Part shown: positions 5,675 through 40,638 of the stretch, piece after piece
Position numbering within the stretch: the first letter of the stretch is position 1
Layout of the letters: the number at the start of each line of letters is the position of its first letter
NCBI GenBank assembly: GCA_016704485.1
Contig: JADJAA010000001.1
Span: forward strand, 1,554,824 to 1,618,823
DNA length: 64,000 bases
Reading direction: 5' to 3'
From: Flavobacteriales bacterium
Lineage (GTDB): Bacteria > Bacteroidota > Bacteroidia > Flavobacteriales_F > PHOS-HE28
The notes under the pieces: generated by a model
Told to the model about the DNA's origin: nothing
Seen by the model: the letters and a program-made list of their open reading frames with translations, nothing else
The model's database searches: none
Position numbers and translations under genes: made by a program

Positions 5675-5739
5675 GGTGCAATGGCCTGCCCGAAGATCGG
5701 GTTCGGCGGGGGAAGATACTAGGATACAGCGCCCTTCGT

Positions 5740-24302: not shown

Positions 24303-25448
24303 TTAGTTCCCCAACTCCCCCCGGAACGCCCCCTGCAACAAACTCCCGAACAAGCCCTCGCTCTGGTGTAAGCTTGCTGCAATGCAGGTGCGCTGCTTTT
24401 GGATGTTATGGAGTAATGTTCCGAACCGTTCCTGCGCTTTGAGTGGAACAAGTGGAATACGCATTCTTCGGATCTCTTCTGTTGTGATATTCTTGAAGAT
24501 GGCTCCCACCGACTTATCGCTGACCCCTACGGCGAGCATATTCAGATAATGGTAAATGAACCTCAGGTCAAAGCCTTTGTCAAAGTCACGAAATCCTGCA
24601 AATCCATCGTGTATGCAACAGTCGACCATCAGGATCGCTGGCAGGCCTGGCTTCCCACTTACAGCCATCACCAAGTCACCACGTTTCATTGGACGACTGC
24701 GCTGTGAGCCTTCAATCGTGAGTGAATCGATCTGAGGTGTCACATACATCCCATCACGGGTCAAGTCTGCAACCATTAGGCGAGGCACGGGACCTCCAAA
24801 GTATCGCGCATCACCCTGTGGTCTTGGACTGCTCCCACGGACGACCTCACACAACGAACCCAAGTCTACAGTTTCCCACCCCCTCTCATTCCGCACCGGA
24901 TCCCCGAACAGCTCCAAGAACAGGCTCTTGGCAAGTTGGTCGTAAACCGCCAAGGTTCGCCGGTCGTTGGCCACCAGCGCCTGCGCCTTGTCCAAGATCG
25001 CCGCGATGCGACGCTGCGTGGGGAGGGCGGGCGGAGCAAAAGGTAAGCTGCGGATATCTTCTATCTTGAAGCCTTTCACCGTCGCTCCGTTTCCACGCGA
25101 AATGAAGTAATTCTCTTTCGCAAATAGAAAGTAATAGAGATAGGTCTGGTCAACCTTGCCATTTATAACAAGCGCCTTCAGATCCTGATTGAATGCCATC
25201 GGCACGTTCGTGATCGACATGCGCCCAAGAGCCATGCGTGTTGCAATCAATAACGTTCCGGCTGGAACTATCTGTGTCGCACAATTATCTACACCGCGTT
25301 CAGTGATCGACTCGTACGTCTCCGAAATATGCTTTGATGTAAGATCCTTCACCGTAGCCCATGGGACATCACCTTCCCAATAGCCCTCGATATCGCGATT
25401 AGGAGTACCACCACCAAGTATCTGGATATAATTGCCCAGCACGCTCAT
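24303..25448 (-). CDS. hsdS: Type I restriction-modification specificity subunit (two TRDs)
   Basis: 381 aa. Two target-recognition-domain halves are each followed by the conserved HsdS helix LPTQRRIAAILDKAQAL. Its start overlaps the hsdM stop by 4 nt (25445..25448). Confidence 0.8.
   Translation of the reverse strand: MSVLGNYIQILGGGTPNRDIEGYWEGDVPWATVKDLTSKHISETYESITERGVDNCATQIVPAGTLLIATRMALGRMSITNVPMAFNQDLKALVINGKVDQTYLYYFLFAKENYFISRGNGATVKGFKIEDIRSLPFAPPALPTQRRIAAILDKAQALVANDRRTLAVYDQLAKSLFLELFGDPVRNERGWETVDLGSLCEVVRGSSPRPQGDARYFGGPVPRLMVADLTRDGMYVTPQIDSLTIEGSQRSRPMKRGDLVMAVSGKPGLPAILMVDCCIHDGFAGFRDFDKGFDLRFIYHYLNMLAVGVSDKSVGAIFKNITTEEIRRMRIPLVPLKAQERFGTLLHNIQKQRTCIAASLHQSEGLFGSLLQGAFRGELGN
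24305..24395. repeat. Direct repeat copy 2 (partner of 23383..23470)
   Basis: See copy 1. It lies immediately downstream of the hsdS stop (24303) and upstream of the proposed start at 24274. Confidence 0.6.
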
Positions 25449-27004
25449 TTCAACAACGCCTCCAATTCGTCCAACAATTTCACACGGTCGGCGGCCAATT
25501 GGCGCAGGCCGGGTTCTCCCTTTTTGCCGTTGATCAGCTCGGCGGGCGTGGCATACTTCACTTGCTCGTACACCACCTCCTTGTAGCGGTTTATGCTGAG
25601 GTCCCAGTTGTTGGCCTTCAAGTCCGCAAAGGGCACCAGAAAGCTCTGGTCGGTTCGTGCACGTTTGCTTTCACCTTTCGCACCGAAGCGCGCTAGGATG
25701 TCGGCGATGTTGCTTTTCTCGTGCAGCGTTTTCGCTCCCTTGGTGGGCTCGGTGTATTGGAGTTCAAGCTGTTCTTCGGTGAGTTGCGGTGTGCGCTTAT
25801 CATCCAACGAGAAACCGTCGGCACGCATGTCGTAGAACCACACGTTGTCGGTACCGCCGCTATCGGTCTTGGTAAAGATCAGCACCGCGGTGCTCACCCC
25901 TGCATAGGGTTTGAATACGCCGCCGGGCATGCTGATCACCGCTTGCAATTGCTGGCGTTCGATCAGTTCCTGCCGCAGTTGCTTGTGCGCCTTGCTGCTG
26001 CCGAAGAGCACACCATCGGGCACGATCACAGCTGCGCGGCCACCTGTGCGGAGCATGCGCAGGATCAGACCTAGGAAGAGCAACTCGGTCTTCTTGCTGC
26101 TCACTGTGCGCAAGATCGCAGGGTCCACAGCGTCGTGGTCCAAGCTGCCTTTGAACGGCGGGTTCGCTAACACCAGCGAGAAGCGCTCACTGATGTGGCC
26201 TTGCTCTTTGCTAAGCGCATCCTGCCCGATCAGTTGCGGGTGCTCAATGCCGTGCAACATCATGTTCATGGCACCAATGCGCAACATGCTGGAGTCGAAC
26301 TCGACCCCGGTGAAGAGGTTGGTGTTGTAATGCTCGCGGAACTTCTTCTCGTGGAAGCTGTCCGGGTGCGTGCGCCGTATCTCTTCGCTTGCCGCCACCA
26401 AGAAACCGCACGTGCCGGCACTGGGATCGCAGATGGTATCGGTGGGTTGCGGAACCATCAGTTGCACCATCATGCGGATGATGTGGCGCGGTGTGCGGAA
26501 CTGGCCGTTGCGTCCTGCCGTAGCGATCTTGCCCAGCAGGTATTCATAGAGGTCGCCCTTGGTGTCGCGGTCGGCCATGTCCAGCGCGGCGATCATTTGC
26601 ACGGCGCGGTCCAGCAACCGCGCGGAGGGGATCATGAACGTAGCACCCTTCATGTGCTCACTGAACACGCTGCCCTCGCGCCCCATCTGCTTCATGAAAT
26701 CGAAGACCGTGAGGTTATCGTTCTTCGCATCAGGCCGCGTAAAGAGCGCGAACAATGTATCCGGGTCCTTGTCCTTGAAACTGCTCCACCGCAACGCCTT
26801 GTACTTGGGCGGGTAAATGGGATCCTTGATGGGCCCACCGAGCTTGGCGCTCTGCTTCTCTTTGGTGGTCTGGATCTCATCCATCCGGCGCAAAAAGAGC
26901 AAGTAGGTGATCTGTTCGATAACCGTGAGCGGATTGGCGATGCCGCCAGTCCAGAAGGCCTCCCAGAGGCGGTCGACGTCGGAGCGGAGTGTTCCGTTTA
27001 TCAT
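25445..27004 (-). CDS. hsdM: Type I restriction-modification N6-adenine DNA methyltransferase subunit
   Basis: 519 aa. It has the HsdM N-terminal domain, GQFRTPRHIIRMMVQL, motif I DPSAGTCGFL, motif IV LANPPFKG, and the C-terminus AAVIVPDGVLFGSS...AVISMPGGVF. Confidence 0.85.
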   Translation of the reverse strand: MINGTLRSDVDRLWEAFWTGGIANPLTVIEQITYLLFLRRMDEIQTTKEKQSAKLGGPIKDPIYPPKYKALRWSSFKDKDPDTLFALFTRPDAKNDNLTVFDFMKQMGREGSVFSEHMKGATFMIPSARLLDRAVQMIAALDMADRDTKGDLYEYLLGKIATAGRNGQFRTPRHIIRMMVQLMVPQPTDTICDPSAGTCGFLVAASEEIRRTHPDSFHEKKFREHYNTNLFTGVEFDSSMLRIGAMNMMLHGIEHPQLIGQDALSKEQGHISERFSLVLANPPFKGSLDHDAVDPAILRTVSSKKTELLFLGLILRMLRTGGRAAVIVPDGVLFGSSKAHKQLRQELIERQQLQAVISMPGGVFKPYAGVSTAVLIFTKTDSGGTDNVWFYDMRADGFSLDDKRTPQLTEEQLELQYTEPTKGAKTLHEKSNIADILARFGAKGESKRARTDQSFLVPFADLKANNWDLSINRYKEVVYEQVKYATPAELINGKKGEPGLRQLAADRVKLLDELEALLK

Positions 27005-27017
27005 GGGGTGAAGATGG

Positions 27018-28226
27018 TCAATGTTTGGTGATGGTGGTAAATTCCCATTTAGACTGTCCGTTCAGTTCGACTTGTTTGACTTGGCCGGAAACGAGGTCGC
27101 CATCCACAAGGCTGTGTAGTTTTATCAGATCCTTGTTGATGTAGGCATCGCCAGCATGGGCGTAGGTGTTATCGTTGCGTTTCTTGACCACGACGCGGCC
27201 CAGTTCTTTGGTATCACCGTCGAGTAGGGGAACTCCGTCGCTGCCTACCGCTTCCTCGTGTAGCCAGGTTCGGTTCGCCTTGGGGTCTGGATACTTTGCT
27301 GCGAACTTCTTGAACCAGACCAACACGTCCATGAGCTGGAACACGATGGTGCTCAAGAGGTAAGGCGTTACACCATGCTCGTGTAGTGCTTCGAGATTGT
27401 CCAAGCTGTAATTGGAATCCTCAGCGGTCTCGTCCGCATGCGAGCTTTCGCTGGTTACCCGCAGAATATTGTCCAGTGCATCGGCAACGATCCGGGGCAT
27501 CATCGGGCGGTCACACTTCAAGGCCACCGTGGCCGAAGAACGGCTCGGATAAAGCACGCGCTCGCCCCGCAGGAACAGTGCTGACAAGCGTTGGTTGACC
27601 CTCGGCTTTACAAGGACATCGGGTAGTAACCCGTGCCGATGCGCGGCATAGAAGAAGTGCTCCACTACCTGACGCAAAGGATTCATGAATAAGCGATCAC
27701 TACCGGACTTGTCCCCGCGATCCACAAAGCGCAATGCGTCCATGAACATAGGGTCGGCAACGGCATCCAAATAAGGAACTTGGAGCACTGCGAACACATC
27801 GGCATACCTATCACGAAGCGCTTGCTCGTTGCTTCGATCAACAAGGCTCTGTAGTTCCGCGTATAGGTCCTTCTCGTTCCCTTTCAAGTACCGCCGCTCA
27901 TCACGACGGTTCTTTGTTGCACCTTCGTCAAAGCCGGTATTGATCACATACGGAATATGAATGTTCGCTCCTTTCCATTGGTCCAGATCCCTGCGGGCTT
28001 CATGCAGGTGGTCGATGTCCTCGGTGGGTGAATGTTCATCCACCTGCCCTCTGGCATCGAGGATCAAGGCTTTGAAACGCTTTTCTCGGATCGGTTCCTT
28101 AGCCTCGGCCCAGGTCTTGAACCAAGTCACTTCGAAACCGTGCGCGACCGCCTTAGCAATTTGGGCTTTGGCGTATGCTTCATCGTCATCTACTAAGGCG
28201 ATCGGAACCAGGTCAAACAGTGTCAT
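27018..28226 (-). CDS. Response-regulator receiver (REC) domain protein with an uncharacterised ~280-aa C-terminal (effector?) domain
   Basis: ORF 27018..28289(-). Start at 28226 gives MTLFDLVPIALVDDDEAYAKAQIAKAVAHGFEVTWFKTWAEAKEPIREKRFKALILDARGQ, with an acidic pocket DDD and a phospho-acceptor-like D in ILDARG. The remainder has no recognisable family. Its start overlaps the stop of the upstream kinase gene by 14 nt. Confidence 0.65.
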   Translation of the reverse strand: MTLFDLVPIALVDDDEAYAKAQIAKAVAHGFEVTWFKTWAEAKEPIREKRFKALILDARGQVDEHSPTEDIDHLHEARRDLDQWKGANIHIPYVINTGFDEGATKNRRDERRYLKGNEKDLYAELQSLVDRSNEQALRDRYADVFAVLQVPYLDAVADPMFMDALRFVDRGDKSGSDRLFMNPLRQVVEHFFYAAHRHGLLPDVLVKPRVNQRLSALFLRGERVLYPSRSSATVALKCDRPMMPRIVADALDNILRVTSESSHADETAEDSNYSLDNLEALHEHGVTPYLLSTIVFQLMDVLVWFKKFAAKYPDPKANRTWLHEEAVGSDGVPLLDGDTKELGRVVVKKRNDNTYAHAGDAYINKDLIKLHSLVDGDLVSGQVKQVELNGQSKWEFTTITKH

Positions 28227-30909
28227 GCGAAATGGGAAGGTCAATGGTGAAGTGGACAAACATTTGAGTGGATACAGCTTCCCGGTCAAATGGTATCCAA
28301 TGATTCTCGTCTATACGTTGATCGCGTTCAAAACTCGATCGGTACTTGTCATCGCTCACTGGCAGGTTACCCGACACGAACTTTCCGCCGTGGTTGGCAA
28401 TGATCCGATCGATCAGATAGCCGCCTATGCCATTGCCCTTTTTCATGTCCAGACGCTTGCCAAAGGTGATGAAGTGCTCATGGGTAAAACCTTCCGGAAA
28501 GGGTTTGCCGTTGTTCTCGATGGTGATAACCAATCGCGTTCGTTGAGGTTCAATACGCGTTGATACCCTCACCCGTACGACCAATTGTTCCTGATCCGAT
28601 CGAAGGCCGTGTTTGGCCATATTGATGAACAAGTTCTGGATGACAAGTGCGAACTGTTGTTGATCGACATGTGCGATCACTCCTTCAGTGGTTTCTAGTC
28701 CAGCTTCACATTCGAAAATGACCATAAGCGCTTTCACCTGGTCGGCAAGTCCGCGCAATTCCGTTCGGAACAGTCGACGAAGGTCGATGGGCACTGGTCT
28801 TAGACTCTCCTTATCTGATCGGATCACCGCATTGATCAATTGAAAGAGACCGCGCATGCGATCCAATCCACTATTCATTGTATCTAGGGCGGTGGTGATC
28901 GTAGACTTTTCAACTGGGCCCAAACTGTTGAGTACTGCATGGATCTCGGCCATGGGTTGCTCCAGAAGCGCCACCACCGGGCGGAAGCTGTGCTCCACTG
29001 CACCAAGGATCTGCCACTCATCAGTGGAGAGGCCATGCTGTTTTTCCTGCCTAGCGATCTCCTCCTTCTTCGCCAATAGAATGGATTCCTTCCGTTCGCG
29101 AACAATGCGCAGTTGATCCTTGAGTTCGGGTAAGCGAACCCGAATTCTCAGAACGTCTGCTTTGGCTATGAAAGCGATCGTACTTCCTTGGTGGTATGCG
29201 TCGAGCTGATCTTGGATCGTGGGCGTTCTTAGTTCTGTTGCGAGGTATTCGGTATTAGCACGAGCCGCATCCACACGGAACATGAATACATTGCTTCCCA
29301 CGGCGATCGGTCCATCTACCGGGTCGAATAAGGTCGGCTTCAACTTTCCGCCCACCCGTGCAAGTAGCAGTGCTGGCACATCCAATCTCTTCAGTCCCTT
29401 CTTGACAGAACCGGTTTCATGTTGCCCATCACGCGCCGTGCGCCTCATGTCGAGGACATCCGTTGAAAGCTCGGAGACCTGGAAGAGCGGCAGACCGGCG
29501 AGGTCGCCCATGGAGAGGATATCGTCCGAAAGCACGGTGCCGAGTTCAACCACGTCCACACCATCCGCTTCGGCCACGATATGGGCTTGTTGAAGCAGGC
29601 TGGCAAACCGACTCATGCTCCAAGACACATGCTCGTCGGAACGGATGTCAGAAACCTTCACGTCCAAAACACCTTGTAAGGTATAAGTGCTATCCAACGC
29701 CTGCAGCACGCTGCTAACATCGAGTGTTATTTCGGATCGCGTCTTGTATGTGACATGCAAACCCGCATCCACGAATCGGACAGGCGCATTCGTTGGCCGT
29801 GATCCATTCAAAACAATGATCGAGGTCTTTATCCCTGAGTAGGGTGTGAAGGATCCTGCTGGCAACGAGATCACTGCTTCGAGCAACCCTAGGTCAAGAA
29901 TCTGTTTGCGTAGATGCGCTCTGTTGATGCCGAACAACATACTCTCGGGCACAAGGATCACCGCCTTCCCCTCGGGTGCAAGCCGCTTGAGGATCTGGTT
30001 GATCGCTATCTCATAGGGTTCTATCGCGCGTAGCCTTCCTTCCTCTTTCACTCGACCACCGAAAGGTGGTGCACTAATGCAATGCGTATACTTCTTGTTG
30101 GAAGCACCGGGTGCTGATGGTTCGTTCAAGGCGGCGTTCAGGTCTGCCCCGAGAATACGTGCTTGCAGCGTATTGAAGAAGAATGCGAATTGGTTGAAGA
30201 ATACCGCGTCGAGCTTTACAGAATGTGGCGCACGCGCTGCGAGCACTGCTGGCAATACGCTCGCATCCGCAGCTGGGTCGAATACCTCTTCCACGTCTCC
30301 GAGCAGCCGCGCCATAAGCATTGCAACGGACCATGGCGTACAGAACTGGCCCATGTGACTATCGCGCAAGAGGAGGCTACGCATTTCTTCCACATACTCG
30401 ATCGGTTCCAAACCCGCTGATGCCATGAGAAAAAGCTCAGTTTGTACTGGGCTTGTTGCCAGTGCGCCGCCATTTTTAAGAAGATACGAATGCTGCTCCC
30501 CAAAGTCCTTAAACTCCTCTGCCAATTCATTCAAGGTGGACCATAATCCTTCTCCTCTTTGAGCGATCGTAGGCAACACTCCTGCTGGGCGCACGGCCAA
30601 GGCATAAATGAGTGCCAGCTCCAAGCCAACGGTCTGCGCGAAGGGCATGGATCGTAGCGCATTGCGCAATTCCCATGCGTGGGCCTGAAAAAAACGGACC
30701 CGGTTCAACATACGTTCTGGATCCAACTGTAAACTACCGTCATCGGATATACTAACACGCCCACCAGACAACTCCACCTCAGCAAGCAAGCTCGATGGCT
30801 CAACGTCCTTCTGGCTCAATAAGACCTTGACGATATTACAGACACCCTCCAAAGTATCCGAGCCGTTCTTCAGGCGAAGGGCACATATTATGGCGTCTAT
30901 CAGTTTCAT
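28213..30909 (-). CDS. Fusion protein: HsdM-like N6-adenine MTase domain (degenerate catalytic motifs) + HsdS-like target-recognition domain + HisKA/HATPase_c histidine kinase
   Basis: 898 aa. It has an HsdM N-terminal helical domain. Motif X is GQFCTPWSVAMLMARLL. Motif I is degenerate, VFDPAADASVLP (no GxGxF). Motif IV is CISAPPFGG, APPF instead of NPPF. The HsdM C-terminal region is AVILVPESMLFGINRAHLRKQILDLGLLEAVISLPAGSFTPYSGIKTSIIVL. The HsdS-like conserved helix is VRLPELKDQLRIVRERKESI. The H-box is AVEHSFRPVVALL. The GHKL ATPase region is LFINMAKHG (N-box), ...IENNGKPFPEGF...GNGIGGYLIDRIIANHGGK (G1/G2). Confidence 0.75.
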   Translation of the reverse strand: MKLIDAIICALRLKNGSDTLEGVCNIVKVLLSQKDVEPSSLLAEVELSGGRVSISDDGSLQLDPERMLNRVRFFQAHAWELRNALRSMPFAQTVGLELALIYALAVRPAGVLPTIAQRGEGLWSTLNELAEEFKDFGEQHSYLLKNGGALATSPVQTELFLMASAGLEPIEYVEEMRSLLLRDSHMGQFCTPWSVAMLMARLLGDVEEVFDPAADASVLPAVLAARAPHSVKLDAVFFNQFAFFFNTLQARILGADLNAALNEPSAPGASNKKYTHCISAPPFGGRVKEEGRLRAIEPYEIAINQILKRLAPEGKAVILVPESMLFGINRAHLRKQILDLGLLEAVISLPAGSFTPYSGIKTSIIVLNGSRPTNAPVRFVDAGLHVTYKTRSEITLDVSSVLQALDSTYTLQGVLDVKVSDIRSDEHVSWSMSRFASLLQQAHIVAEADGVDVVELGTVLSDDILSMGDLAGLPLFQVSELSTDVLDMRRTARDGQHETGSVKKGLKRLDVPALLLARVGGKLKPTLFDPVDGPIAVGSNVFMFRVDAARANTEYLATELRTPTIQDQLDAYHQGSTIAFIAKADVLRIRVRLPELKDQLRIVRERKESILLAKKEEIARQEKQHGLSTDEWQILGAVEHSFRPVVALLEQPMAEIHAVLNSLGPVEKSTITTALDTMNSGLDRMRGLFQLINAVIRSDKESLRPVPIDLRRLFRTELRGLADQVKALMVIFECEAGLETTEGVIAHVDQQQFALVIQNLFINMAKHGLRSDQEQLVVRVRVSTRIEPQRTRLVITIENNGKPFPEGFTHEHFITFGKRLDMKKGNGIGGYLIDRIIANHGGKFVSGNLPVSDDKYRSSFERDQRIDENHWIPFDREAVSTQMFVHFTIDLPISHDTV

Positions 30910-30971: not shown

Positions 30972-32234
30972 TCAAGCGACTTTCTCCAGTCGGTTTGTCG
31001 GCAGAAGTTGGGCAGCCATACGATCCATGACCTCCCATTCCGGACGTGTGTACGAGTTGCTCTCCGTGACCACCGGGATCCTGAATTCGCCCATGGCATC
31101 CTCGCGCATAGCCCATTGATCCTTCTGGTCGTAGAGCTTTGTTCCGGGCAAAAGCATCAGCGGCCAAGCCTTAACGTCCCTGCAGCCTTTGGATAAGAGG
31201 TGGTCGATACTACGCTGGAAACTTTCCAAGGTCTGTCCGGGCAACCCGTAGATCAAACTCACTTCGAAAGGAATCTCGCGCTCCACAAGCTGTTCAATAG
31301 CAGCATCGACAAGATCCATCCGATTGGCGCGGTCAATTTTCTTGGACACTGCATGGTCCGTGGTCTGCAACCCGAACTCCAAGTGGAAGTTGGCTTGCGT
31401 ACAAAGGTCCAGGAATGCATTAACCTGTTGGCCTCGGATATTCTCAAAGCGCGATTGCAGGGTGAAGGTGGAGCGCGTACGGAGTTGAACGATCTCTTGC
31501 ATTATATCCAGGCACTCCTTCCCAGCGTTGAAGATGGGGTCGAGTATGTTCACGCGTTGCACACGATGTTCAGTGAGAAATGCTAACTCTTTAAAGACTT
31601 TATCCAGTGGGTGCTTATGCACGCGGTGAGTGGCGAGGTCGCGGTGTGCGCAAAATGAACACCGGTAGGGGCAGCCGCGTTTGGTCTCCAACCGTACCAT
31701 ACCGGCTCCCATTGGTACAGGCAATTCGCCAGTGAGATACGGTGAGGCCAGTTGTGTGAAGTCCACTGGTACGTTCACGAACACGGGTTCGTCGGCATCG
31801 AGATGGTCCGTCAATTCGGCAAAGGCTTGTTCGGCTTGTCCGGAGATGAAGACCTGGCAATCCGGATACCGACGCAGCAATTCTGCTCGGTTCCCGTAGG
31901 TGACTTGATACCCTCCGAGGACCACCTTGCCAAGGAACCCAAGACGACGAAGCAATGCGATGATGCCATTGGTGAGGTACTCGTTCCAGATGTAAGCCGA
32001 GAGCGCGATGGCGTTAAAGCGGCTCACATCAAGCGCCGCGAGTTGCACTTCGAATTGCTCGGGTGTGGCCGTGCCGCCGTGTTCGAGCATGTTGATCGAG
32101 AGGTGTTCCACGTGCATCTGTCCACGCAGCCGTTCATTACTCCGTTGGTGTGCCAAGAGAGATGCGATCGCCAAGGGCTTGGTGATCTCACCGTGCCGGA
32201 TCAGGTCGAAGGATATGATGAGCGTGTTCGTCAT
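30972..32234 (-). CDS. B12-binding domain radical SAM protein
   Basis: ORF 30972..32282(-). There is an N-terminal cobalamin-binding-like Rossmann region. The radical SAM cluster motif is RGCPYRCSFCAH (CxxxCxxC). It sits 62 bp upstream of the MTase-kinase gene, which is co-oriented. Confidence 0.75.
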   Translation of the reverse strand: MTNTLIISFDLIRHGEITKPLAIASLLAHQRSNERLRGQMHVEHLSINMLEHGGTATPEQFEVQLAALDVSRFNAIALSAYIWNEYLTNGIIALLRRLGFLGKVVLGGYQVTYGNRAELLRRYPDCQVFISGQAEQAFAELTDHLDADEPVFVNVPVDFTQLASPYLTGELPVPMGAGMVRLETKRGCPYRCSFCAHRDLATHRVHKHPLDKVFKELAFLTEHRVQRVNILDPIFNAGKECLDIMQEIVQLRTRSTFTLQSRFENIRGQQVNAFLDLCTQANFHLEFGLQTTDHAVSKKIDRANRMDLVDAAIEQLVEREIPFEVSLIYGLPGQTLESFQRSIDHLLSKGCRDVKAWPLMLLPGTKLYDQKDQWAMREDAMGEFRIPVVTESNSYTRPEWEVMDRMAAQLLPTNRLEKVA

Positions 32235-32343
32235 TGGTCCTCGCCACCAAGGGTCTATATGGTTGGATAATCGCTCAACCAACGAACTTCCCTATGGCAA
32301 CGGACCAAAAGTCCCGGTCACCTGTGCAGTCTATCTGCACAGT

Positions 32344-33354
32344 TCATTTCGCGTAGTTCTTCTTCATTTCCATCACCCGCAAAAGCAGCGCTTGGCGTAG
32401 TTCTTCCGGCGCAATAACCTGTAGCCCTTCTCCATAAGATAACAACAAGGCTTGTAGCTCGTAGTTCAGCTTCACTTCTAAACGAATAGTCGCGCCGCCG
32501 TCTTTTCTCTTCACTACTTTCTGCGAACCGTGTATAGGCTTTGACTCCAAATAAGGCCAAAGTCTATCCGTGACTTGGATCTTGACAACAACAGCTTCTT
32601 GATCCGCAGGTACACTTACACCAACAACATCCTCAAAATACTCCGTGAAATCCACCTCATCGTTCGGTATGTATTTCACCTTACTGGGTACAATATCCCG
32701 GATCCGGTCCAAGGCCATATTGACAATACGCCCCTCTTCCTCAAGACCAAAAACAAACCAACGGTTGTTATACTGTTTCAAGTAATACGGATGGAGCAAC
32801 ACAATGCTAGGCGCATTTTGCTTGAAGCCTTGGTAAGATATTTCCAAGGCTTGCTCATTGATGATCGAATGAAATAATGTGGTAATGTGCTCGGCACCTT
32901 TCAAATACGGGTTCTGCTCAAACTCGATGACCTGAGCAGCCCCTTGTTTCAGCCCGAAACCAGCTTCCAACCGAGCAACTAATTCATCTACCCATTCAAA
33001 CTGCGGCATGCCCTTAAATCGGCTCAGCGTTAAGAGCGCCTCCTTCAATTGTTCCGCTTCGCTCTCGTTCAGCGGTCGCTTGTTGATAGAGAATTCAAGG
33101 TCACTGTACCGGTAAAAAGTACGCTTTCCGTCTTTGTGTTTCTCCAGCGGGATAGCCCATCCTTGTTCGCTCTCCATGTACTTGATGTCCTCGAAAACTT
33201 GGCGGCGGCTGATGCTTGCACCTGCTCCGGTGAACTCCTCCAACGCCATGTTGCAAGCTTCCATCAGGTCTTCGATGAAATACTCGCGCCCACGGTTCGC
33301 AAAGCAACGGTCCATTGTCTGATAGCGAATAAGGGCATTCTTATTTACGGGCAT
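32344..33354 (-). CDS. WYL-domain transcriptional regulator (N-terminal wHTH + WYL + C-terminal WCX-like)
   Basis: 336 aa. The WYL signature is LLHPYYLKQYNNRWFVFGL, with an N-terminal HTH-like region. It has BrxR/CapW-like architecture. It is the first gene of the co-oriented block 33354->24303. Confidence 0.75.
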   Translation of the reverse strand: MPVNKNALIRYQTMDRCFANRGREYFIEDLMEACNMALEEFTGAGASISRRQVFEDIKYMESEQGWAIPLEKHKDGKRTFYRYSDLEFSINKRPLNESEAEQLKEALLTLSRFKGMPQFEWVDELVARLEAGFGLKQGAAQVIEFEQNPYLKGAEHITTLFHSIINEQALEISYQGFKQNAPSIVLLHPYYLKQYNNRWFVFGLEEEGRIVNMALDRIRDIVPSKVKYIPNDEVDFTEYFEDVVGVSVPADQEAVVVKIQVTDRLWPYLESKPIHGSQKVVKRKDGGATIRLEVKLNYELQALLLSYGEGLQVIAPEELRQALLLRVMEMKKNYAK

Positions 33355-33487: not shown

Positions 33488-33900
33488 CGCTGCCAGCTGG
33501 GTGGTAACCTGCACCAAGCTTGATGGTACCACACACCAAGCTTAGTGGTACCCTGTGCCAAGCTTAGTGGTACCTTGCACTAAGCTTGATGGTACCCTGC
33601 ACTAAGCTTAGTGGTACCCTGCACTAAGCTTAGTGGTACTCTGCACTAAGCTTAATGGTACCCTGCACCCAGTTGGGTGGTACCCTCCACCCAGCAGGGT
33701 GGTACCCTGCACCCAGTTGGGTGGTACCCTGCACTAAGCTTAGTGGTACCCTGCACTAAGCTTAGTGGTACTCTGCACTAAGCTTAATGGTACCCTGCAC
33801 CCAGTTGGGTGGTACCCTGCACCCAGTTGGGTGGTACCCTGCACCCAGTTGGGTGGTACCCCGCACTAAACTTAATGGTACCCGACACCAAGCTCAATAG
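33488..33900. repeat. Tandem array of ~19 copies of a 22-bp unit GGTACCCTGCACTAAGCTTAGT (variant units GGTACCCTGCACCCAGTTGGGT)
   Basis: Read directly from the sequence. Each unit contains the palindrome GGTACC plus either the 10-bp palindrome CTAAGCTTAG or the near-palindrome CCCAGTTGGG. A ~90-bp higher-order block (A-A-A-B) is itself duplicated. There are no unique spacers. It is non-coding because the unit length is not a multiple of 3. Confidence 0.9.
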
Positions 33901-33984: not shown

Positions 33985-34202
33985 GTCCGCTATCTATACC
34001 ATACTACTATAGGGCACATTGAACCTTAGTCTGGACTTCCGCCTTCGGAACTGCATTCGCTGCCAGATGATCATTGGGGTGCAATTATCCCAAACCTATA
34101 CCATATTACTATAGGGGGCATAAGCCTCCATCTCCGGCTCGTGAACTTTGGAGGTAAAGATGGTGTGATTTGACCTACTACCTATACCATATTACTATAT
34201 GG
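33985..34202. repeat. Three dispersed copies (~100 bp spacing) of a 20-nt near-palindromic motif CCTATACCATAYTACTATAGGG
   Basis: Copies are at ~33985 (ctataccatactactataggg), ~34089 (cctataccatattactataggg) and ~34178 (cctataccatattactatatgg). They lie between the two tandem arrays. Confidence 0.7.
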
Positions 34203-34287
34203 TGCTTTGCACCGTGCGCCTCGTGGTGCACACTTGTGGTTCAGAACTGCTTCATGTAGGCCTGGTGCAAGAGGCTGTATTTGTTCC

Positions 34288-34758
34288 ATTGGTACATGGC
34301 CTTGTCCCGTAAGTACATGTACTTGTGCCTTTGGTACATGTACTTGTCCCGTGAGTACATGTACTTGTCCCGTAAGTGCATGTACTTGTCCCGTGAGTAC
34401 ATGTACTTGTCCCGTGAGTACATGTACTTGTCCCGTAAGTACATGTACTTGTCCCGTAAGTACATGTACTTGTGCCGTTGGTACATGTACTTGTCCCGTA
34501 AGTACATGTACTTGTGCCGTTGGTACATGTACTTGTGCCGTTGGTACATGTACTTGTGCCGTGAGTACATGTACTTGTGCCGTGAGTACATGTACTTGTC
34601 CCGTAAGTACATGTACTTGTGCCGTTGGTACATGTACTTGTCCCGTAAGTACATGTACTTGTCCCGTAAGTACATGTACTTGTCCCGTAAGTACATGTAC
34701 TTGTCCCGTAAGTACATGTACTTGTGCCGTGAGTATGTGTACCTGTACCATGTGTAAC
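34288..34758. repeat. Tandem array of ~22 copies of a 21-bp unit TACATGTACTTGTCCCGTAAG (variants GTGCCGTTGG / CCGTGAG)
   Basis: Read directly from the sequence. Each unit contains the perfect 10-bp palindrome GTACATGTAC. Because 21 bp equals 7 codons, all frames are open, which explains four overlapping artefactual ORFs in the track (34182..34788). Confidence 0.9.
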
Positions 34759-35042
34759 GATACTTCAAGTTACAGTACACTTACTTGATACAGAGGTGCT
34801 TATGCCATTGCGTGGGGTATGCCTGCTTGTAACACGGGGACTGATAACCCACTCAGCGTCAGGCGTAAAGAGTGATCCGAACGTTGCCCGTGCTGCATAA
34901 CCCATCCTCGAGCGGCCGCGTGCGGGCTACAGTAAATGAAAAGAACCCCGGCCAGTTGTGCTAGGATTCTTCCGTTCGGGGATGGTGTATGAGTGGCAGG
35001 GTCGTCTGCTATGCGGCAGACTGACCCTGAGCGGGTTTAAAA

Positions 35043-35457: not shown

Positions 35458-36426
35458 TCAAGCCTTTATGAACTCGTTCACAAAAGCTTGTACAAATTGC
35501 TTGGCTAAAGCAGAGTAAGGCTTGGTCGGCTCTGTCAGTTGCATCAGCAATTCCACCTCTTGCTCGATCATCGCCTCAATTGTTCCTGTGGTCTTTTTTA
35601 CAAGTTTGTTCAATGTACGTGTTGGTACTTTATCCTTGAATGATCTGATATCCTTACCGATCTCGTTCGATAGGTCGATCAATTTCAAGATCATCTCAAA
35701 ACGCATTTTTAATCGCAGAATGTATTCTCTGCGCATATCGACCAACCCCTTTCTATTCAAGCCGTAGATCTCAATGGAACGGATCGCTTTTTGCCAATGG
35801 ATCTCCCTTTTTATCACGTTCTCTGATGAGGGCAAAGCAATGGCCTTCATTACTCCTGAGTCATCGTATTCCAAGTATTTGCTAGGTTCGTCCGTACAAG
35901 GGTTCAACAACAAACATTGTTCGCCTGAAATATCGAACAGCGGCGCACTCGCACGCATTGTTTCATCAAACAATGGAAAAGAGTTTGCCTTTCCTTGTTT
36001 TAGCTTTTTCCATTGATAGGACCCATCTATGGGGTTCTTTCGATACACATATTGATAGCGCGCTCTATTGCAGTCTATGCATGAAGGGAGTAGATTATCC
36101 CATTCCATTGCGAGCTTAGCATATACACCTACTTTAGTTTCGGTCTTGTTCGTCAATTCTACGAGCACTTCGGATTTGGGTCTGAAATGCTCAATATCCA
36201 GCGGTTGTGTGCGCGTGTAAGGTGATTCGCAATATGCACATTTACCATGGAACATAAGCTCCAACAACTCAGGCACTTTTTCGTGCTTGTAAAGCTTGAA
36301 ATCGGGCTTTAGGTCCTTGTGGAAATCGCTTCGAAGCCATGCTTCCACCTCTTCCTTTTCTTTGTTGAAGGCATCCGAGGTTATGGTAAGTGCCTGCGGG
36401 GCATTTACGCGTTTTCGTTTGATCAT
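35458..36426 (-). CDS. HNH endonuclease-domain protein, PtuB-like (TIGR02646-type)
   Basis: 322 aa. The HNH motif is GKCAYCESPY...DIEHFRPKS...NLLPSCIDCN. The central region is paralogous to the N-terminal domain of the upstream 795-aa protein. Confidence 0.7.
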   Translation of the reverse strand: MIKRKRVNAPQALTITSDAFNKEKEEVEAWLRSDFHKDLKPDFKLYKHEKVPELLELMFHGKCAYCESPYTRTQPLDIEHFRPKSEVLVELTNKTETKVGVYAKLAMEWDNLLPSCIDCNRARYQYVYRKNPIDGSYQWKKLKQGKANSFPLFDETMRASAPLFDISGEQCLLLNPCTDEPSKYLEYDDSGVMKAIALPSSENVIKREIHWQKAIRSIEIYGLNRKGLVDMRREYILRLKMRFEMILKLIDLSNEIGKDIRSFKDKVPTRTLNKLVKKTTGTIEAMIEQEVELLMQLTEPTKPYSALAKQFVQAFVNEFIKA

Positions 36427-36434
36427 TGAAGAGC

Positions 36435-38822
36435 TCAGTTGTTCAGGCGCCAGGAAGCATCCGTTAAAGCCTCTATTATCTTCTTAGTGGGTTTGGGAAA
36501 TCGTACGTTGGTCGGTGACTTCATCAAGTGCTCATCGATCAGCCTCAACAAGTACATATCACGCCGACTACTACCGAGAATGCTCTTTCTGTTGAGTCGT
36601 TCATGTAGATCCTTCAGTTGTGCCTTACCCGAATCATCTAACGCCGATGCCTTCGCTATGAGGTTGTAATAGCGGTCAAAGAATTCAGCTGTGCGCGGGT
36701 CCAGGGTTGTACTTAATCCGAATAATTCTGAGGTAAGGAGCTGGTCGGAACGTAAGCCAGCCGGCGAATCCATGTCGTCGTGTACTGTAGCCATGGAAGG
36801 GTCGTCCACATTTCTCTTGACCAATGCTACTTCACCAGCACCCAGCCCATGCAGGCATAGTGGCTCATGGGTGCTCGCGATGAATTGGATAAGCGGAAAT
36901 GTCTGTTCCAATCTTCTTAAGATGCTCATGCGCCAACTCGGGTGCAGATGTGCACCGATCTCATCAATTAGTACCACGCCTCTAATTTGATGCGTATCCG
37001 TTGGATTGCCTGCCATTATATCACAGGCTAGACCAACCATGGTCTTGTAACCCGCACTAAAATGCTTTAAGCGGGTGAATGACCCGTTCACGAAAAGCCC
37101 GAATTGTGTTGGCTTGTTGTTTTCAAATTGAAAGTCGAGACGTGTAGAATTATCTGTAAGATCCAGCAGGTCCTTCAAGGCCACACAAACATCGAAGAAC
37201 TGCTGTTGATTCTTTACCACTATGGTACGTAACCACTCTTCGGCATCTACCATGGGATAGAACGGGTCAAAGAGGTTCTGGATGTTCTTATTCACTCCCC
37301 TTTTCTCTAACAGATCAGAACTCTTGCCTTTTTGCGGCAGCAATCGAACAGGCCCGTATGCACGAAGAAATATATTCGGGACCTCACCTTGCTCCCATTT
37401 TAATCCGCTATTCGTGATGTTCACTACGATAGGATCTGTTCGCTGATGAAAGTAGACTTCAATTCTACCTGACGTAGCTCCACGCCTCAAGCTAGTGCTG
37501 AAATGCTCCTTCATCTTACTCAAGGCTTTCTTGCCGCTGAGTATCAATGCAAGTGCTTCGAGCAGCGAACTTTTTCCTGACCCGTTCTCACCCAGCAGCA
37601 TTTTCCAACCGCTGTGTCGAAAGGTTTCCTGTTGTGGAGATTCGGAGCCGTTTTCGTCGATCGTCTTCCGGCGTTCCTCTTGATTGCCTCCCGCTGTTTC
37701 CGTGTTCAAGTCTAAGTTCAGTTCACGTTCTGTGTCTACTAGGTCTTTCGGGCGTTCTTGGGGGATCAAGAATACAGCCTTCTCGAAGATCCTGTAATTC
37801 TCAACTATTAATTTGCTAATGGTCAGCGCTTGATGCGCGACTTTCTCCTTGGACGGCGCATTCTCTGTGGCGGTTTTCGGAGGAGTTCTTTGCGCCTCGG
37901 AACTCGTCTTCTTTGGAGACTCCTTATTAGCGCGTGTTGATCCCGGTTTCGTACGCGCTCCGGTCTCAGCTTCTAATAAGGACCCAGGCTTATTGAGCCC
38001 TTTGCTTATTGTTTCGACGTGCAGGCCGTCGCCTTGAATGAGGATTTTTAGTCCGAAGTCCTCCTTAAGAACATGGTTACTCAGATTCCGCATTGGACTT
38101 TGCGGGTCTATCAGTCCTTTCAAGAAGTGATCTTCTTCTACGGTTCGAGGTAGTTTCTCACCCTTTTTTTTAAGAACCAGAGACTTTGTCAAGTCGCGAA
38201 CTCGGTGAACCATATCACTCCTTCTATTGATGGCGGATTTCCGGTTCAGGTCCAGAGTTTCAATGGTCACCTCGGCTCGTCGCTTCTGCATGTGCCCTAA
38301 AGTGGAACGAGGCTTTATCATTCCATTAGATGAATAGTCGAAGTACTCCTCCGGATCGTCTTCATAAGGATTCAGCAAATACGGTTCTTCTTTCTCGAGC
38401 GCACTCCCCCGAGGCTGGTCATCAGCATGCTTGATAGGAACACGTTTTCCGGCGATGGGAAACTGTGCTCCCTTTGCAAAACTGCACTCATTGCATATGG
38501 GTAGCATGTTCTGCCAATCAAACAATAGCCACCAATAGTGGTCGCCAACCTGCTCATTTGGTTCCACTTTTACCGGTCGGTACAGGTCGATGTGTACCGT
38601 CTTTTCATTCAAGGGTGCTTCGCAATACGCACATGCATTATTGGAGGTTTCCAGAAGATCTCGGTTTACATCACGAGAATACTGTGGAGCCTTGTGTCTT
38701 ATCTGGCTTCGCTTCTCTAAAGGTTGCGCATAAAACTTCCGAAGTTCATTGAACGTCTTCTCTCCTTCCGTACTGTACTGTAGGTCTGGTGGAGATACTT
38801 TACTTCGGTTCAGTTTTCTCAT
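36435..38822 (-). CDS. Fusion of an N-terminal HNH (PtuB-like) domain with an AAA15/ABC-type ATPase (PtuA-like)
   Basis: 795 aa. The N-terminus has NACAYCEAPL...HIDLYRPV...NMLPICNECS (HNH). The ATPase has Walker A LLGENGSGKSSLLEALALIL, Walker B VVLIDEIGAHLHPS, and ASTHEP (a D-loop/H-motif region). Its stop (36435) is 9 nt from the downstream HNH gene start. Confidence 0.7.
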   Translation of the reverse strand: MRKLNRSKVSPPDLQYSTEGEKTFNELRKFYAQPLEKRSQIRHKAPQYSRDVNRDLLETSNNACAYCEAPLNEKTVHIDLYRPVKVEPNEQVGDHYWWLLFDWQNMLPICNECSFAKGAQFPIAGKRVPIKHADDQPRGSALEKEEPYLLNPYEDDPEEYFDYSSNGMIKPRSTLGHMQKRRAEVTIETLDLNRKSAINRRSDMVHRVRDLTKSLVLKKKGEKLPRTVEEDHFLKGLIDPQSPMRNLSNHVLKEDFGLKILIQGDGLHVETISKGLNKPGSLLEAETGARTKPGSTRANKESPKKTSSEAQRTPPKTATENAPSKEKVAHQALTISKLIVENYRIFEKAVFLIPQERPKDLVDTERELNLDLNTETAGGNQEERRKTIDENGSESPQQETFRHSGWKMLLGENGSGKSSLLEALALILSGKKALSKMKEHFSTSLRRGATSGRIEVYFHQRTDPIVVNITNSGLKWEQGEVPNIFLRAYGPVRLLPQKGKSSDLLEKRGVNKNIQNLFDPFYPMVDAEEWLRTIVVKNQQQFFDVCVALKDLLDLTDNSTRLDFQFENNKPTQFGLFVNGSFTRLKHFSAGYKTMVGLACDIMAGNPTDTHQIRGVVLIDEIGAHLHPSWRMSILRRLEQTFPLIQFIASTHEPLCLHGLGAGEVALVKRNVDDPSMATVHDDMDSPAGLRSDQLLTSELFGLSTTLDPRTAEFFDRYYNLIAKASALDDSGKAQLKDLHERLNRKSILGSSRRDMYLLRLIDEHLMKSPTNVRFPKPTKKIIEALTDASWRLNN

Positions 38823-38823
38823 C

Positions 38824-40638
38824 TTAACTATGTGCTATTCTGTGGAACGTGTTCGCCAAATAGTGCTTCGGGTTAGTCCTGGCGATCAGGTCGAATTGTG
38901 CTTCGCTCAGGCCGGCCAGCATATTGGCATAGAGCTCCTTTTCTGATAGGTGGTTCCTCACGACAAAAAAGTCTGTACCGAACAGGACCCGTTCACCGAG
39001 TTTCTTCACTGAATGGTCGATCGTCTTTTTCAGTAACGGTTGTATCCACGGATCGTGCAATATGTAACTGATATCTGCATAAACGTTCTCATAGCGCAAC
39101 ATCATACTGCAAATGATCGTGTACCAGTCAGCTTCCATCCAGTGAGCGTAGACACGTGTCCATTGGATGCGCTTGTGTTCGTTGTCATAATACGATCGAT
39201 GAAATAATCCGCTTTCAGCATGCAGGTTCAGATCTTGGTTGTACTGGTCATTATCGGCTTCTAAATGTCGTTTCCATTCATCAACACCACCAAAATGTGC
39301 CAAGCAGATCTTCAATTGAGAAAGTGATCGGAATTTTTCATCGGGACCTTTTTCGAACAACGTTTGAATTCGGGGTTGGCAGCTCACGAGGTGCTCCCTC
39401 AAGAGGTCATCATCCAGCAGGCAGAGGTAGTTCAATGGATGTGTGTAGTTCTTTTGAAAGTCGATTCCGCGAAGTTCCAACAGGTCAATGGGTGCGATCA
39501 CCGTATCGTCATGTGCGTCCTCTATTCCGGTTGAACGCTTGAAGACAGGATGCTTTGCCATTTCATCAGTGATCTTGTCTCGGGAATATATTGTGCCATG
39601 CACGCAATGGGTCATGATCGGTAAACCTTCCTGAGCTGCATACGCCCACACGGGCAATAGGTCTTCATCGAAAGGATAATAACCTAAAGCCGGGTAGATC
39701 TTGAATCCGCAGCAACCATTGCTTAGATACTTCTGGACTTTACATTCAAGCAAGACTACTTTACCGTATTCTACTTTCCACTTGAAGAAGTCATCCTCTT
39801 CACGAATTCGGCGTGGATCAATGAAGATGAAAGGCAGTATTTGATGTCCATGATCTTCACCTTTGGTAAGTTTTACAAGCCCTTCCATTTGTTTGTGGAA
39901 ATCACCTAATCGGTGGACCTTCCCCGCACCCATGTATTTCATATCCATTGGTAGAACAATGAATTTGGTTTCGGCTGGGTACTGGGCCCGGAGTTTTTGA
40001 AAGAGTAGACTTAGTCGCCTTTGGTCATCACCGGTTTTCGCACTTTTCGTCTCGTAACCATAAGAGCTGAAGCGTGCGATAAGTACGTATCGCTCCAAAA
40101 GGTCCATGTACTCCGTAGCAGGAAAGCTCTTGATCATTGGAACAAACTTTTGTAGAAGGAACCAGATCTGTCTTCGAACGGCTGGGATGAATGCAATAAT
40201 TGCTGCTACGAATATGGTCTTGATCGCCCAGTGTAATTCATGAAAGTATAATTTATACTTTACAAGTAACGCCAAGAACGCCGCGATATATTTCGACCCG
40301 CCATAGAAGGTGCTTTCAACCAAAACTTCATAAAGGAATAATAACACATAGATCGTAACGATCAAATTAAACGCACCTCGTACAAACTTCAAGAAGCTGT
40401 TTCGTTGGATCCTGTTCTGCGCCTTTACCTTGTTTATGCGTATGGTTTCTTGTGCCGGTTCATACCGCTCGGCATACTTCCGTCGGTTGCACTTCACGTA
40501 AAGTTTCATGAAGTAATCCATTCGCGCCCACTTGTACAACGGCCACGGAAGAATACCCTTTGCATGCTCTGGAGGCACGTGATAGTTGTTGAACAAGTGC
40601 ACGTGGCAGTTCACTATGGGGTCCTTCACTTTACTCAT
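38824..40638 (-). CDS. Membrane-anchored amidohydrolase-superfamily (metal-dependent TIM-barrel hydrolase, Amidohydro_2-like) protein
   Basis: 604 aa. The N-terminal metal-binding motif is VNCHVHLF. A ~80-aa insertion carries 2-3 TM helices (LIVTIYVLLFLY, IFVAAIIAFIPAV). Then come IMTHCVHG, CLAHFGG and VLFGTDFF. It ends 2 nt before the start of the HNH-ATPase gene. Confidence 0.6.
   Translation of the reverse strand: MSKVKDPIVNCHVHLFNNYHVPPEHAKGILPWPLYKWARMDYFMKLYVKCNRRKYAERYEPAQETIRINKVKAQNRIQRNSFLKFVRGAFNLIVTIYVLLFLYEVLVESTFYGGSKYIAAFLALLVKYKLYFHELHWAIKTIFVAAIIAFIPAVRRQIWFLLQKFVPMIKSFPATEYMDLLERYVLIARFSSYGYETKSAKTGDDQRRLSLLFQKLRAQYPAETKFIVLPMDMKYMGAGKVHRLGDFHKQMEGLVKLTKGEDHGHQILPFIFIDPRRIREEDDFFKWKVEYGKVVLLECKVQKYLSNGCCGFKIYPALGYYPFDEDLLPVWAYAAQEGLPIMTHCVHGTIYSRDKITDEMAKHPVFKRSTGIEDAHDDTVIAPIDLLELRGIDFQKNYTHPLNYLCLLDDDLLREHLVSCQPRIQTLFEKGPDEKFRSLSQLKICLAHFGGVDEWKRHLEADNDQYNQDLNLHAESGLFHRSYYDNEHKRIQWTRVYAHWMEADWYTIICSMMLRYENVYADISYILHDPWIQPLLKKTIDHSVKKLGERVLFGTDFFVVRNHLSEKELYANMLAGLSEAQFDLIARTNPKHYLANTFHRIAHS

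Follow-up and report, generated by a model that had tools for sequence, protein, structure and literature searches.

The window analyzed here, a 64,000-nt stretch of a Flavobacteriales bacterium genome (contig JADJAA010000001.1, positions 1,554,824 to 1,618,823 of the forward strand), carries a gene for a 420-aa protein that, judged from its sequence and a structure model, is a compact TokK-type radical S-adenosylmethionine (SAM) enzyme, dependent on cobalamin (Cbl), of the PADLOC family PDC-M51A. The gene, here called rSAM, is followed by genes for a methyltransferase–histidine kinase fusion (MTase-HK), a response regulator (RR) and the type I restriction-modification (RM) subunits HsdM and HsdS. 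We propose, with a probability of roughly 40%, that rSAM is a swappable anti-phage effector that makes a modified, probably C-methylated, nucleotide; we infer its substrate, its product, its anti-phage activity, and its control by the neighboring kinase/regulator pair.

Sequence and Structure of the rSAM Enzyme

The gene and its two cofactor motifs lie as follows:

nt. 30972–32234, minus strand: rSAM gene, 420 aa (Pfam, NCBIfam, PADLOC and PDB searches, AlphaFold2 model, Foldseek, alignments)
nt. 31650–31673, minus strand: CxxxCxxC [4Fe-4S]/SAM motif, C188, C192 and C195 (translation and invariant alignment columns)
nt. 31986–32006, minus strand: A77-x-S79-x-Y81-x-W83 cobalamin lower-face motif (phmmer alignment to TokK and CysS, and conservation)

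The longest form of the open reading frame (ORF) runs from a TTG codon at nt. 32282 to nt. 30972 on the minus strand. The ATG at nt. 32234, the start used in an original prediction that a model had made from the DNA letters, is by homology the real start, because all homologs open at an equivalent M-x-x-T-L-I-I-S-F-D-L. That prediction described a CxxxCxxC radical SAM protein with an N-terminal B12-binding region, and the description stands. The cluster cysteines C188, C192 and C195 lie in the motif RGCPYRCSFCAH (residues 186–197) and are invariant in family alignments of both 15 and 50 sequences, and the Pfam Radical_SAM domain (PF04055) is recognized at 50.7 bits (cut-off 29.5, E 3e-13). The Pfam B12-binding model reached 20 bits, below its cut-off of 32.1. 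In layout, a Rossmann Cbl domain (residues ~1–150) is followed by a radical SAM barrel (~175–375), and the protein ends at residue 420 with no C-terminal substrate domain.

An AlphaFold model computed from 50 homologs (pLDDT 92.3, pTM 0.89) gave TokK and CysS as the top Foldseek ranks (E 6e-24, TM 0.77 on the query), with both domains aligned, followed by TsrM, AprD4, OxsB and MgmA; viperins aligned over the core only. At 620–680 residues the Foldseek targets are longer than the query, which extends over their cobalamin and radical SAM domains but has no counterpart of the C-terminal one. The CxxxCxxC motif, together with a partial TIM barrel modelled at high confidence, places the protein in the radical SAM superfamily. 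The features expected of class B were likewise found, namely an N-terminal Rossmann cobalamin domain, in Foldseek alignments spanning both domains (TokK, CysS, TsrM, OxsB), and the TokK-type A-x-S-x-Y-x-W (β3–α3 loop) and GG (β4) motifs.

In TokK, the downstream Cbl-binding (lower-face) motif is Ala70-x-Ser72-x-Tyr74-x-Trp76, with the same Trp predicted in ThnK and CysS (PMC9204698). The rSAM sequence A77-L-S79-A-Y81-I-W83 aligned by phmmer with TokK residues 70–76. The smaller (15-sequence) alignment shows no variation at any of these four positions. Among the 50 sequences W83 never varies; S79 and Y81 keep a conservation of 90% or more, and that of A77 is under 90%. The GG motif (G107/G108) and E135 are invariant in both sets, and G132 is invariant in the smaller and at least 90% conserved in the larger. 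Furthermore, D232 and P233 are invariant at the position of TokK Asp250-Ala251, and H197 stands in place of TokK Trp215. From these alignments and the model, a TokK-type base-off cobalamin site in rSAM is well supported. Across phyla, the family retains 50 invariant residues and a mean column identity of ~58% while its partner genes change.

The closest PDB sequences are CysS (E 1e-19) and TokK (E 3e-15). With TokK, ThnK and CysS (PDB 7kdx, 9n1b), rSAM shares the two-domain core, the CxxxCxxC, A-x-S-x-Y-x-W and GG motifs, and a D-x-x at the GGE position. However, identity to these enzymes is 21–22%, they are 650–680 aa long and possess a C-terminal domain that rSAM lacks, and rSAM has no carrier-protein or antibiotic gene context. 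No NCBIfam model was reached at its cut-off; the best, the KedN5 family of methylcobalamin-dependent C-methyltransferases (NF033712), scored 113 bits against a 700-bit cut-off, over profile positions 169–396 of 624. By this failed cut-off and the absent C-terminal domain, rSAM sits outside the TokK/CysS/KedN5 family.

Family Membership and Neighborhoods of the Orthologs

Searched against PADLOC-DB, rSAM matched PDC-M51A (PDLC04689; E 6.8e-117) practically end to end, with residues 3–412 on profile positions 6–413 of 420. The PDC sets come from Payne et al., who used "guilt-by-embedding" to find 145 phage defense candidates, cassettes that lie inside BREX, DISARM or type I RM systems; PDC-M51 is a two-gene candidate cassette of a radical SAM gene and a deoxynucleoside kinase (dNK) gene (bioRxiv 10.1101/2024.01.29.577857). 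The second component, PDC-M51B, is the small kinase encoded beside many rSAM orthologs (E 9e-78 in PADLOC). These kinases also match the PADLOC model VakA, a name that we take to mean viperin-associated kinase and for which PADLOC gives no description. The window rSAM resembles the candidate in its component A match and in lying, like it, beside or inside type I RM loci, but it is joined to a WYL regulator, MTase-HK and RR instead of a dNK/TMPK-like kinase. The defense association of the family is thus already on record as a candidate and is not new. Our literature search found no paper naming PDC-M51 or any B12 radical SAM defense system, and neither the WYL/rSAM/degenerate-MTase kinase/RR/HsdMS architecture nor its slot swapping, described below, was found in the literature searched.

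More than 1,600 members of the family can be detected, most of them in Bacteroidota. A scan at the species level, with each species represented by a single genome, gave 107 loci; the 80 retained (30–79% identity) span Bacteroidota, Desulfobacterota, Gammaproteobacteria, Planctomycetota, Poribacteria, Latescibacterota and other groups. Neighborhoods were surveyed in these and in seven metagenome loci. Loci are numbered L001 and so on; their genes are simple longest-ORF calls, neighbor families were counted through aggregated scans, and the rSAM tree is a neighbor-joining sketch.

Clustering of the neighbors of the 80 loci showed very low synteny. Nucleoside/nucleotide kinases of three P-loop families flank rSAM in 13 loci from several clades of the tree: TMPK/dNK-like kinases (PDC-M51B) in nine, ADK-like kinases in three, and a uridine-kinase-like PRK in one (L033). 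WYL regulators flank eight loci and RtcR-like CARF regulators five. Other immediate neighbors include HamA, Drt3a, HEC-06, CARF nucleases, PDC-S25, OLD/AriA-like ATPases, NsnB, ParE-like toxins and NYN, with PglZ and SNF2 genes near rSAM in one locus; the most distant clade has an uncharacterized protein of ~590 aa as its partner, and in some loci rSAM seems to stand alone or has housekeeping genes around it. Overall, defense and defense-candidate genes, toxin–antitoxin genes, WYL and RtcR-type regulators and nucleotide kinases recur. The original prediction had named occurrence in bacteriochlorophyll or antibiotic operons as evidence against it; none was seen, nor any other biosynthetic or metabolic operon, around rSAM in the 80 species-level and seven metagenome loci.

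The original prediction also stated that a radical SAM enzyme is not a normal RM component, and the survey agrees: type I hsd genes lie within 10 kb in seven of the 44 loci that have 5 kb or more of sequence to either side, against a roughly guessed expectation of a few per cent at most. The RM association is hence recurrent but not general. Searches of IMG/VR, INPHARED phages and PLSDB plasmids returned no relatives, the sole matches being unrelated radical SAM proteins at 24% identity, and by its sequence distribution rSAM appears to be a host-side gene.

In four Desulfobacterales loci (L019–L021, L030), rSAM is followed by a TPR-rich protein of 590–640 aa and a protein of 476 aa in which the N-terminus (LWVEDN...VIVLDVKF) resembles a receiver on visual inspection. 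Comparison of these two proteins (clusters c5 and c12) with MTase-HK and RR gave hhalign probabilities of 1–2% on shallow alignments and no Pfam HATPase or REC match, and the resemblance was not used.

The Operon in the Window

The genes of the operon and the associated hsdR are listed below:

nt. 32344–33354, minus strand: WYL + WCX transcription regulator, operon head (Pfam WYL, WCX; PADLOC WYL)
nt. 28213–30909, minus strand: MTase-HK, a fusion of a type-I-like N6-MTase domain, a stretch resembling a target recognition domain (TRD) and a histidine kinase, 898 aa (Pfam N6_Mtase, HATPase_c; PADLOC MTase_I, Specificity_I; PDB matches to HsdM and a histidine kinase)
nt. 27018–28226, minus strand: RR, 402 aa (REC, a helical middle domain and a C-terminal S1/cold-shock-like OB fold)
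nt. 25445–27004, minus strand: HsdM, type I methyltransferase subunit (Pfam N6_Mtase, 195 bits, HsdM_N; PADLOC MTase_I, E 2e-168)
nt. 24303–25448, minus strand: HsdS, type I specificity subunit (Pfam Methylase_S; PADLOC Specificity_I)
nt. 23477–24274, minus strand: 265-aa ORF, operon end (no Pfam, NCBIfam, PADLOC or PDB match)
nt. 17621–21079, minus strand: HsdR, type I restriction subunit with N-terminal DUF4145 (Pfam ResIII, HSDR_N, EcoEI_R_C, DUF4145; PADLOC REase_I, E 3e-160)

The operon order, all on the minus strand from nt. 33354 down to ~23477, is WYL, rSAM, MTase-HK, RR, hsdM, hsdS and the 265-aa ORF, with gaps of 109 nt (WYL–rSAM), 62 nt (rSAM–MTase-HK), 13 nt (RR–hsdM) and 28 nt (hsdS–265-aa ORF) and overlaps of 14 nt (MTase-HK–RR) and 4 nt (hsdM–hsdS). 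The predicted placement of rSAM directly upstream of MTase-HK and hsdMS is therefore correct. The claim that it is embedded in an RM locus holds with a qualification: rSAM does lie upstream of hsdM and hsdS in one operon, but it does not lie between hsd genes, and hsdR is set apart. All three hsd genes are present in the window, HsdR is probably the partner of HsdMS, and rSAM is an extra gene rather than a canonical type I subunit. Between hsdS and hsdR lie the 265-aa ORF and an oppositely oriented class III adenylate/guanylate cyclase gene (nt. 21999–23375, plus strand) with an N-terminal membrane region; the cyclase and an upstream 253-aa ORF (together nt. 21302–23375) break the minus-strand series from hsdR to hsdS.

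The kinase residues of MTase-HK (H640 in the H-box, N763, and G827/G829) are invariant among six aligned homologs. Its motif IV, on the other hand, reads APPF instead of N/DPPF, the N/D position being A, K, A, A, D or H across the six, and motif I (FDPAADAS) lacks G-x-G. These residues suggest a real kinase joined to a probably inactive methylase that serves as a DNA reader. In RR, whose true start is M22, the invariant REC residues are D13–D15, D57, T97 and K115.

The operon membership of the 265-aa ORF is uncertain; its only homolog is in L001, where the tblastn match begins at residue 61. A UDG-like identity for it, guessed from the sequence YGQAVGG, was rejected, as it found no Pfam, NCBIfam, PADLOC or PDB sequence support.

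A perfect 8-bp-stem hairpin, CTGTGCAG-TCTAT-CTGCACAG (nt. 32322–32342), lies in the gap that separates the stop codon of WYL from the start of rSAM and could be an attenuator or operator. Upstream of the WYL gene, at a distance of 150 nt, a 22-bp tandem array (nt. 33501–33894; 17.9 copies, with a higher-order 132-bp unit) holds in each unit a 14-bp palindrome, CACTAAGCTTAGTG or CACCCAGTTGGGTG. Chance would give 0 matches to the degenerate palindrome pattern, which has 15, and none of the 96 related loci contains the exact palindrome; the array may represent a set of operators or be REP-like. Shuffled controls yielded more sites than the real sequence in a scan for sigma-70 promoters and terminators, which is uninformative for a probably Bacteroidota genome.

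Conservation of the Module

The same gene set was found in L001 (rSAM identity 76%), L081/82/89 (85%), L083/84 (82%), L088, L094 and L095/96, as well as in the distant loci L061 and L062 (rSAM 32%, MTase-HK ~20% identity), in which the order is instead MTase-HK, RR, rSAM and then the hsd genes. The joint divergence of both partners in L061 and L062 speaks for rSAM and MTase-HK/RR being a long-standing functional unit. In L095, rSAM, MTase-HK, RR, hsdM and hsdS are followed by two GmrSD genes and hsdR. An upstream WYL gene is also conserved in L001, L081–84, L089, L092 and L095.

L092 is the locus that lacks rSAM: its order is WYL, a 90-aa gene, a 180-aa gene, a DUF4407 gene, MTase-HK and RR. 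This replacement suggests that the position between WYL and the kinase behaves as an exchangeable slot, like the effector slots of other defense systems. Overall, rSAM and MTase-HK/RR occur together in nine of ten distinct loci with a visible upstream region, and a metagenome scan with a three-sequence MTase-HK alignment recovered only two true relatives, both with rSAM. Seven of the 20 known RR homologs are on contigs equal in size to rSAM-bearing contigs.

Within the close clade, rSAM (78–94% identity), HsdM (80–100%) and WYL (63–68%) are conserved, and MTase-HK (26–65%), RR (28–78%) and HsdS (35–40%) are divergent. Such a pattern would be expected if MTase-HK, RR and HsdS recognize variable targets and rSAM something universal.

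A DUF2130 protein of ~415 aa is encoded between WYL and rSAM in most of the close relatives, namely in L081 (nt. 4561–5808), L082–L084, L089, L005 and L002, and is missing from the window and L001. It combines a coiled coil with a D...E-x-K motif that is of the PD-(D/E)xK type by eye. A PADLOC search of the accessory genes (DUF2130, the L092 cassette, and the genes after hsdS) returned nothing beyond a weak LmuB match.

Proposed Function and Comparison with Known Systems

In the mechanism that we propose, rSAM would convert a common nucleoside or nucleotide into a modified one, by C-methylation by default or by an OxsB-like rearrangement as an alternative. C-methylation is the default chemistry of class B enzymes and is favored here because of the TokK-type motifs. 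As with viperin products, phage nucleic-acid synthesis would be poisoned by the resulting molecule, which might alternatively serve as a signal. In many genomes, the adjacent nucleoside/nucleotide kinase may supply the substrate or phosphorylate the product. In the window, where rSAM comes second in an operon that opens with WYL, WYL would control it; the task of HsdM and HsdS would be to mark self DNA, the kinase fused to a degenerate MTase and TRD would read DNA, and RR would pass the signal on to rSAM as the downstream effector.

We favor a nucleotide-modifying effector because the enzyme is conserved although its partners change, and because kinases from three non-orthologous families have joined it time and again. 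The solitary occurrences, the adjoining ligand-sensing regulators and the absence from phages add parallels to the prokaryotic viperins (pVips). The original prediction had left open DNA or nucleotide hypermodification or the synthesis of a small molecule; since nucleoside/nucleotide kinases are the partners found most often, a nucleotide or small-molecule role is favored over hypermodification of DNA.

Several points weigh against this proposal. TokK, CysS and the KedN5-family enzymes methylate carrier-bound natural-product intermediates, not nucleotides; the C-terminal lid is missing from rSAM, and the active site may therefore be open to a macromolecule (DNA, RNA or protein). The co-conservation of rSAM with HsdM would also fit a DNA-directed role. 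Only 13 of the 80 loci have a kinase, and the window has none: tblastn of 12 kinase partners, run on the entire window, gave nothing better than E 0.1 for component B, and Pfam and PADLOC scans of the window genes showed no kinase family of the PDC-M51B type, so that by sequence the window holds component A but falls outside the two-gene PDC-M51 definition. Many of the loci are short metagenome contigs, and the absence of a partner is therefore often unknowable. Cobalamin binding by rSAM is predicted from motifs and fold, and AprD4, whose fold is similar, is not known to use B12. Finally, our literature search found no experiment on any member of the PDC-M51A family.

The closest functional parallel would be with pVips, which are likewise radical SAM enzymes of defense islands, often alone and sometimes with a nucleotide kinase. 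By sequence and fold, however, rSAM is not a viperin: it has a B12 Rossmann domain, viperin aligns over the radical SAM core only (TM 0.33–0.37, Foldseek ranks 42–50), no pVip model matched it in PADLOC, and its expected chemistry is methyl transfer or rearrangement rather than dehydration. OxsB of oxetanocin A biosynthesis (PDB 5ul4), a structural relative (Foldseek E 4e-14, TM 0.68), acts on 2′-deoxyadenosine phosphates in a pathway that yields an antiviral nucleoside, and would be a precedent for a B12 radical SAM enzyme working on nucleotides. It differs from rSAM in sequence (13–14% identity), in its extra N- and C-terminal domains, and in its HD-domain partner OxsA, which is absent at the window locus. 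Its lower face, moreover, is Asn/water instead of Trp (PMC9204698).

For the MTase-HK/RR part of the operon, the nearest known arrangement is Ambrosia, in which an N6-MTase, a HATPase kinase, a REC regulator and a dedicated transcription regulator form one anti-phage operon (bioRxiv 10.1101/2025.09.30.679545). The window part resembles its MTase, kinase and REC set, and the kinase and REC domains were confirmed. Nevertheless, MTase and kinase are fused in the window and the MTase motifs are degenerate, whereas those of Ambrosia are separate proteins with an active MTase; the window RR carries a helical domain and S1/CSD instead of a wHTH, and the regulator is WYL instead of XRE. The window locus also lacks HNH nuclease and XRE genes and adds rSAM, HsdM and HsdS. 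Two further systems were considered and set aside as having different enzymes and partners, namely Ophion (a viperin-related radical SAM protein with PHP and PRTase) and HXS (two-cluster radical SAM maturases of an HxS-repeat protein).

A more specific form of the proposal may be termed "restriction by signalling". Here HsdM and HsdS would methylate self DNA, the dead-MTase kinase would read unmethylated invader DNA in place of HsdR, RR would relay the signal, and rSAM would make a novel antiviral nucleotide, C-methylated or ring-rearranged. As a complete chain of steps, we consider this scheme doubtful.

Alternative Explanations

The strongest alternative, although we would still bet against it, is that rSAM is a self-contained defense gene that came to lie inside an RM/two-component locus, as in a "genomic sink" or by co-transfer, with no mechanistic link to MTase-HK, RR or HsdMS. 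Just such embedding is what defines the PDC candidates; partners vary widely over the 80 loci, L092 has MTase-HK and RR in the absence of rSAM, and the island around the operon also carries the unrelated systems Septu and GmrSD. Against it, rSAM accompanies MTase-HK/RR in nine of ten distinct loci, including the reordered L061 and L062 in which the proteins have diverged to 20–32% identity. The seven of 20 RR homologs on contigs size-matched to rSAM-bearing ones and the tight or overlapping operon spacing likewise speak for a link. This alternative concerns wiring only and is compatible with nucleotide chemistry.

Less likely again is hypermodification of nucleic acid, in which rSAM would add a second, radical-installed mark (e.g., a C-methyl on a base) to DNA or RNA alongside the methyltransferases of the locus, and the dead-MTase kinase or HsdR/GmrSD would read it as a self/non-self mark. 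The shared operon with HsdM, HsdS and an MTase-like reader is in line with this, as are the high conservation of just two cluster genes, rSAM and HsdM, the recurrence of the architecture in distant lineages, the open active site suggested by the missing lid, and a GmrSD-type modification-dependent nuclease in the island, embedded within the series itself in L095. Yet neither a methyltransferase nor a nuclease gene lies near most family members, and several members seem to stand alone; where partners recur, a nucleotide kinase (of TMPK/dNK, ADK or uridine-kinase type), not a DNA kinase, is met most often. Pfam detected no DNA- or RNA-binding domain in rSAM, and no phage homologs were found, though phages are rich in DNA hypermodification pathways.

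Modification of a protein or peptide, with rSAM methylating or crosslinking RR, HK or a small neighboring ORF in the way of Mmp10, MgmA or the class B methylases of ribosomally synthesized and post-translationally modified peptides (RiPPs), is improbable. Class B does include protein and peptide methylases, MgmA (9ccb) is among both the sequence and the fold matches, and an open active site would fit, but the partner proteins differ between clades while the enzyme is highly conserved, and no conserved small ORF or precursor-like gene travels with the family. Heptad-repeat ORFs in the window (nt. 34182–34788) were rejected as precursor peptides, being by-products, on both strands, of a 21-bp DNA array.

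An ordinary natural-product or cofactor biosynthetic methylase with no defense role is the least probable explanation: the nearest characterized relatives are indeed antibiotic-pathway enzymes (TokK, CysS, the KedN5 family), but identity is only 21–24%, the KedN5 score is far below its cut-off, and the neighborhoods hold, in place of PKS, NRPS, sugar or cofactor genes, the HamA, Drt3a, HEC-06, CARF, OLD/AriA-like, ParE-like, PglZ/SNF2, type I RM and WYL genes noted above.

The Surrounding Defense Island

The wider surroundings of the operon are a defense island. Just beyond hsdR lies a gene for a 604-aa GmrSD_N protein (nt. 15720–17534), adjoined by one for a 1610-aa fusion (nt. 10664–15496) of a DpdF-like DEAD helicase (PADLOC DpdF, E 5e-98) and a UvrD/GajB-like helicase. 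Further along, a DEAD/RecQ-like helicase gene with a weak C-terminal phosphoribosyltransferase match (nt. 6850–9003) is overlapped by a gene for a DprA/SLOG (LDcluster4) protein (nt. 8955–10223); the two could be another conflict-system pair.

On the upstream side of the operon is a Septu pair, PtuB (nt. 35458–36426) and PtuA (nt. 36435–38822), and directly after PtuA a gene (nt. 38824–40638) for a protein of 604 aa that carries an Amidohydro_2 domain at its C-terminus and is predicted to have membrane helices. GC content falls to 0.44–0.48 over 34–42 kb, and at the edge of this segment lie genes for a papain-like C1 peptidase (nt. 41885–42676) and an SH3 + CHAP cell-wall hydrolase (nt. 42709–43362). 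The 21-bp tandem array (nt. 34292–34746; 21.7 copies, 91% matches between copies) yields ORFs on the minus (nt. 34182–34751) and plus (nt. 34207–34788) strands with heptad repeats such as QVHVLTG; the array, which separates the Septu genes from the WYL operon, probably does not code for protein.

Implications

Conserved, widespread, compact and already listed in PADLOC, the rSAM family is a well-defined target for biochemistry and phage challenge, and even if rSAM proved to be a passenger or a DNA modifier, the result would settle an open PADLOC candidate. If rSAM does make a modified nucleotide, it would open, beside viperin, another way for radical SAM enzymes to reach antiviral nucleotide analogues by a different chemistry, and possibly a new chain-terminator or antimetabolite chemistry. 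Were the "restriction by signalling" scheme true, rSAM would be a cobalamin-based functional counterpart of viperin that is also passed around independently, paired with a kinase of its own, as the PDC-M51 cassette. The locus itself illustrates how a swappable effector may be joined to a type I methylase, a degenerate methylase in the role of sensor, and a two-component relay, a combination that bears on the evolution of RM systems into signalling-type immunity.

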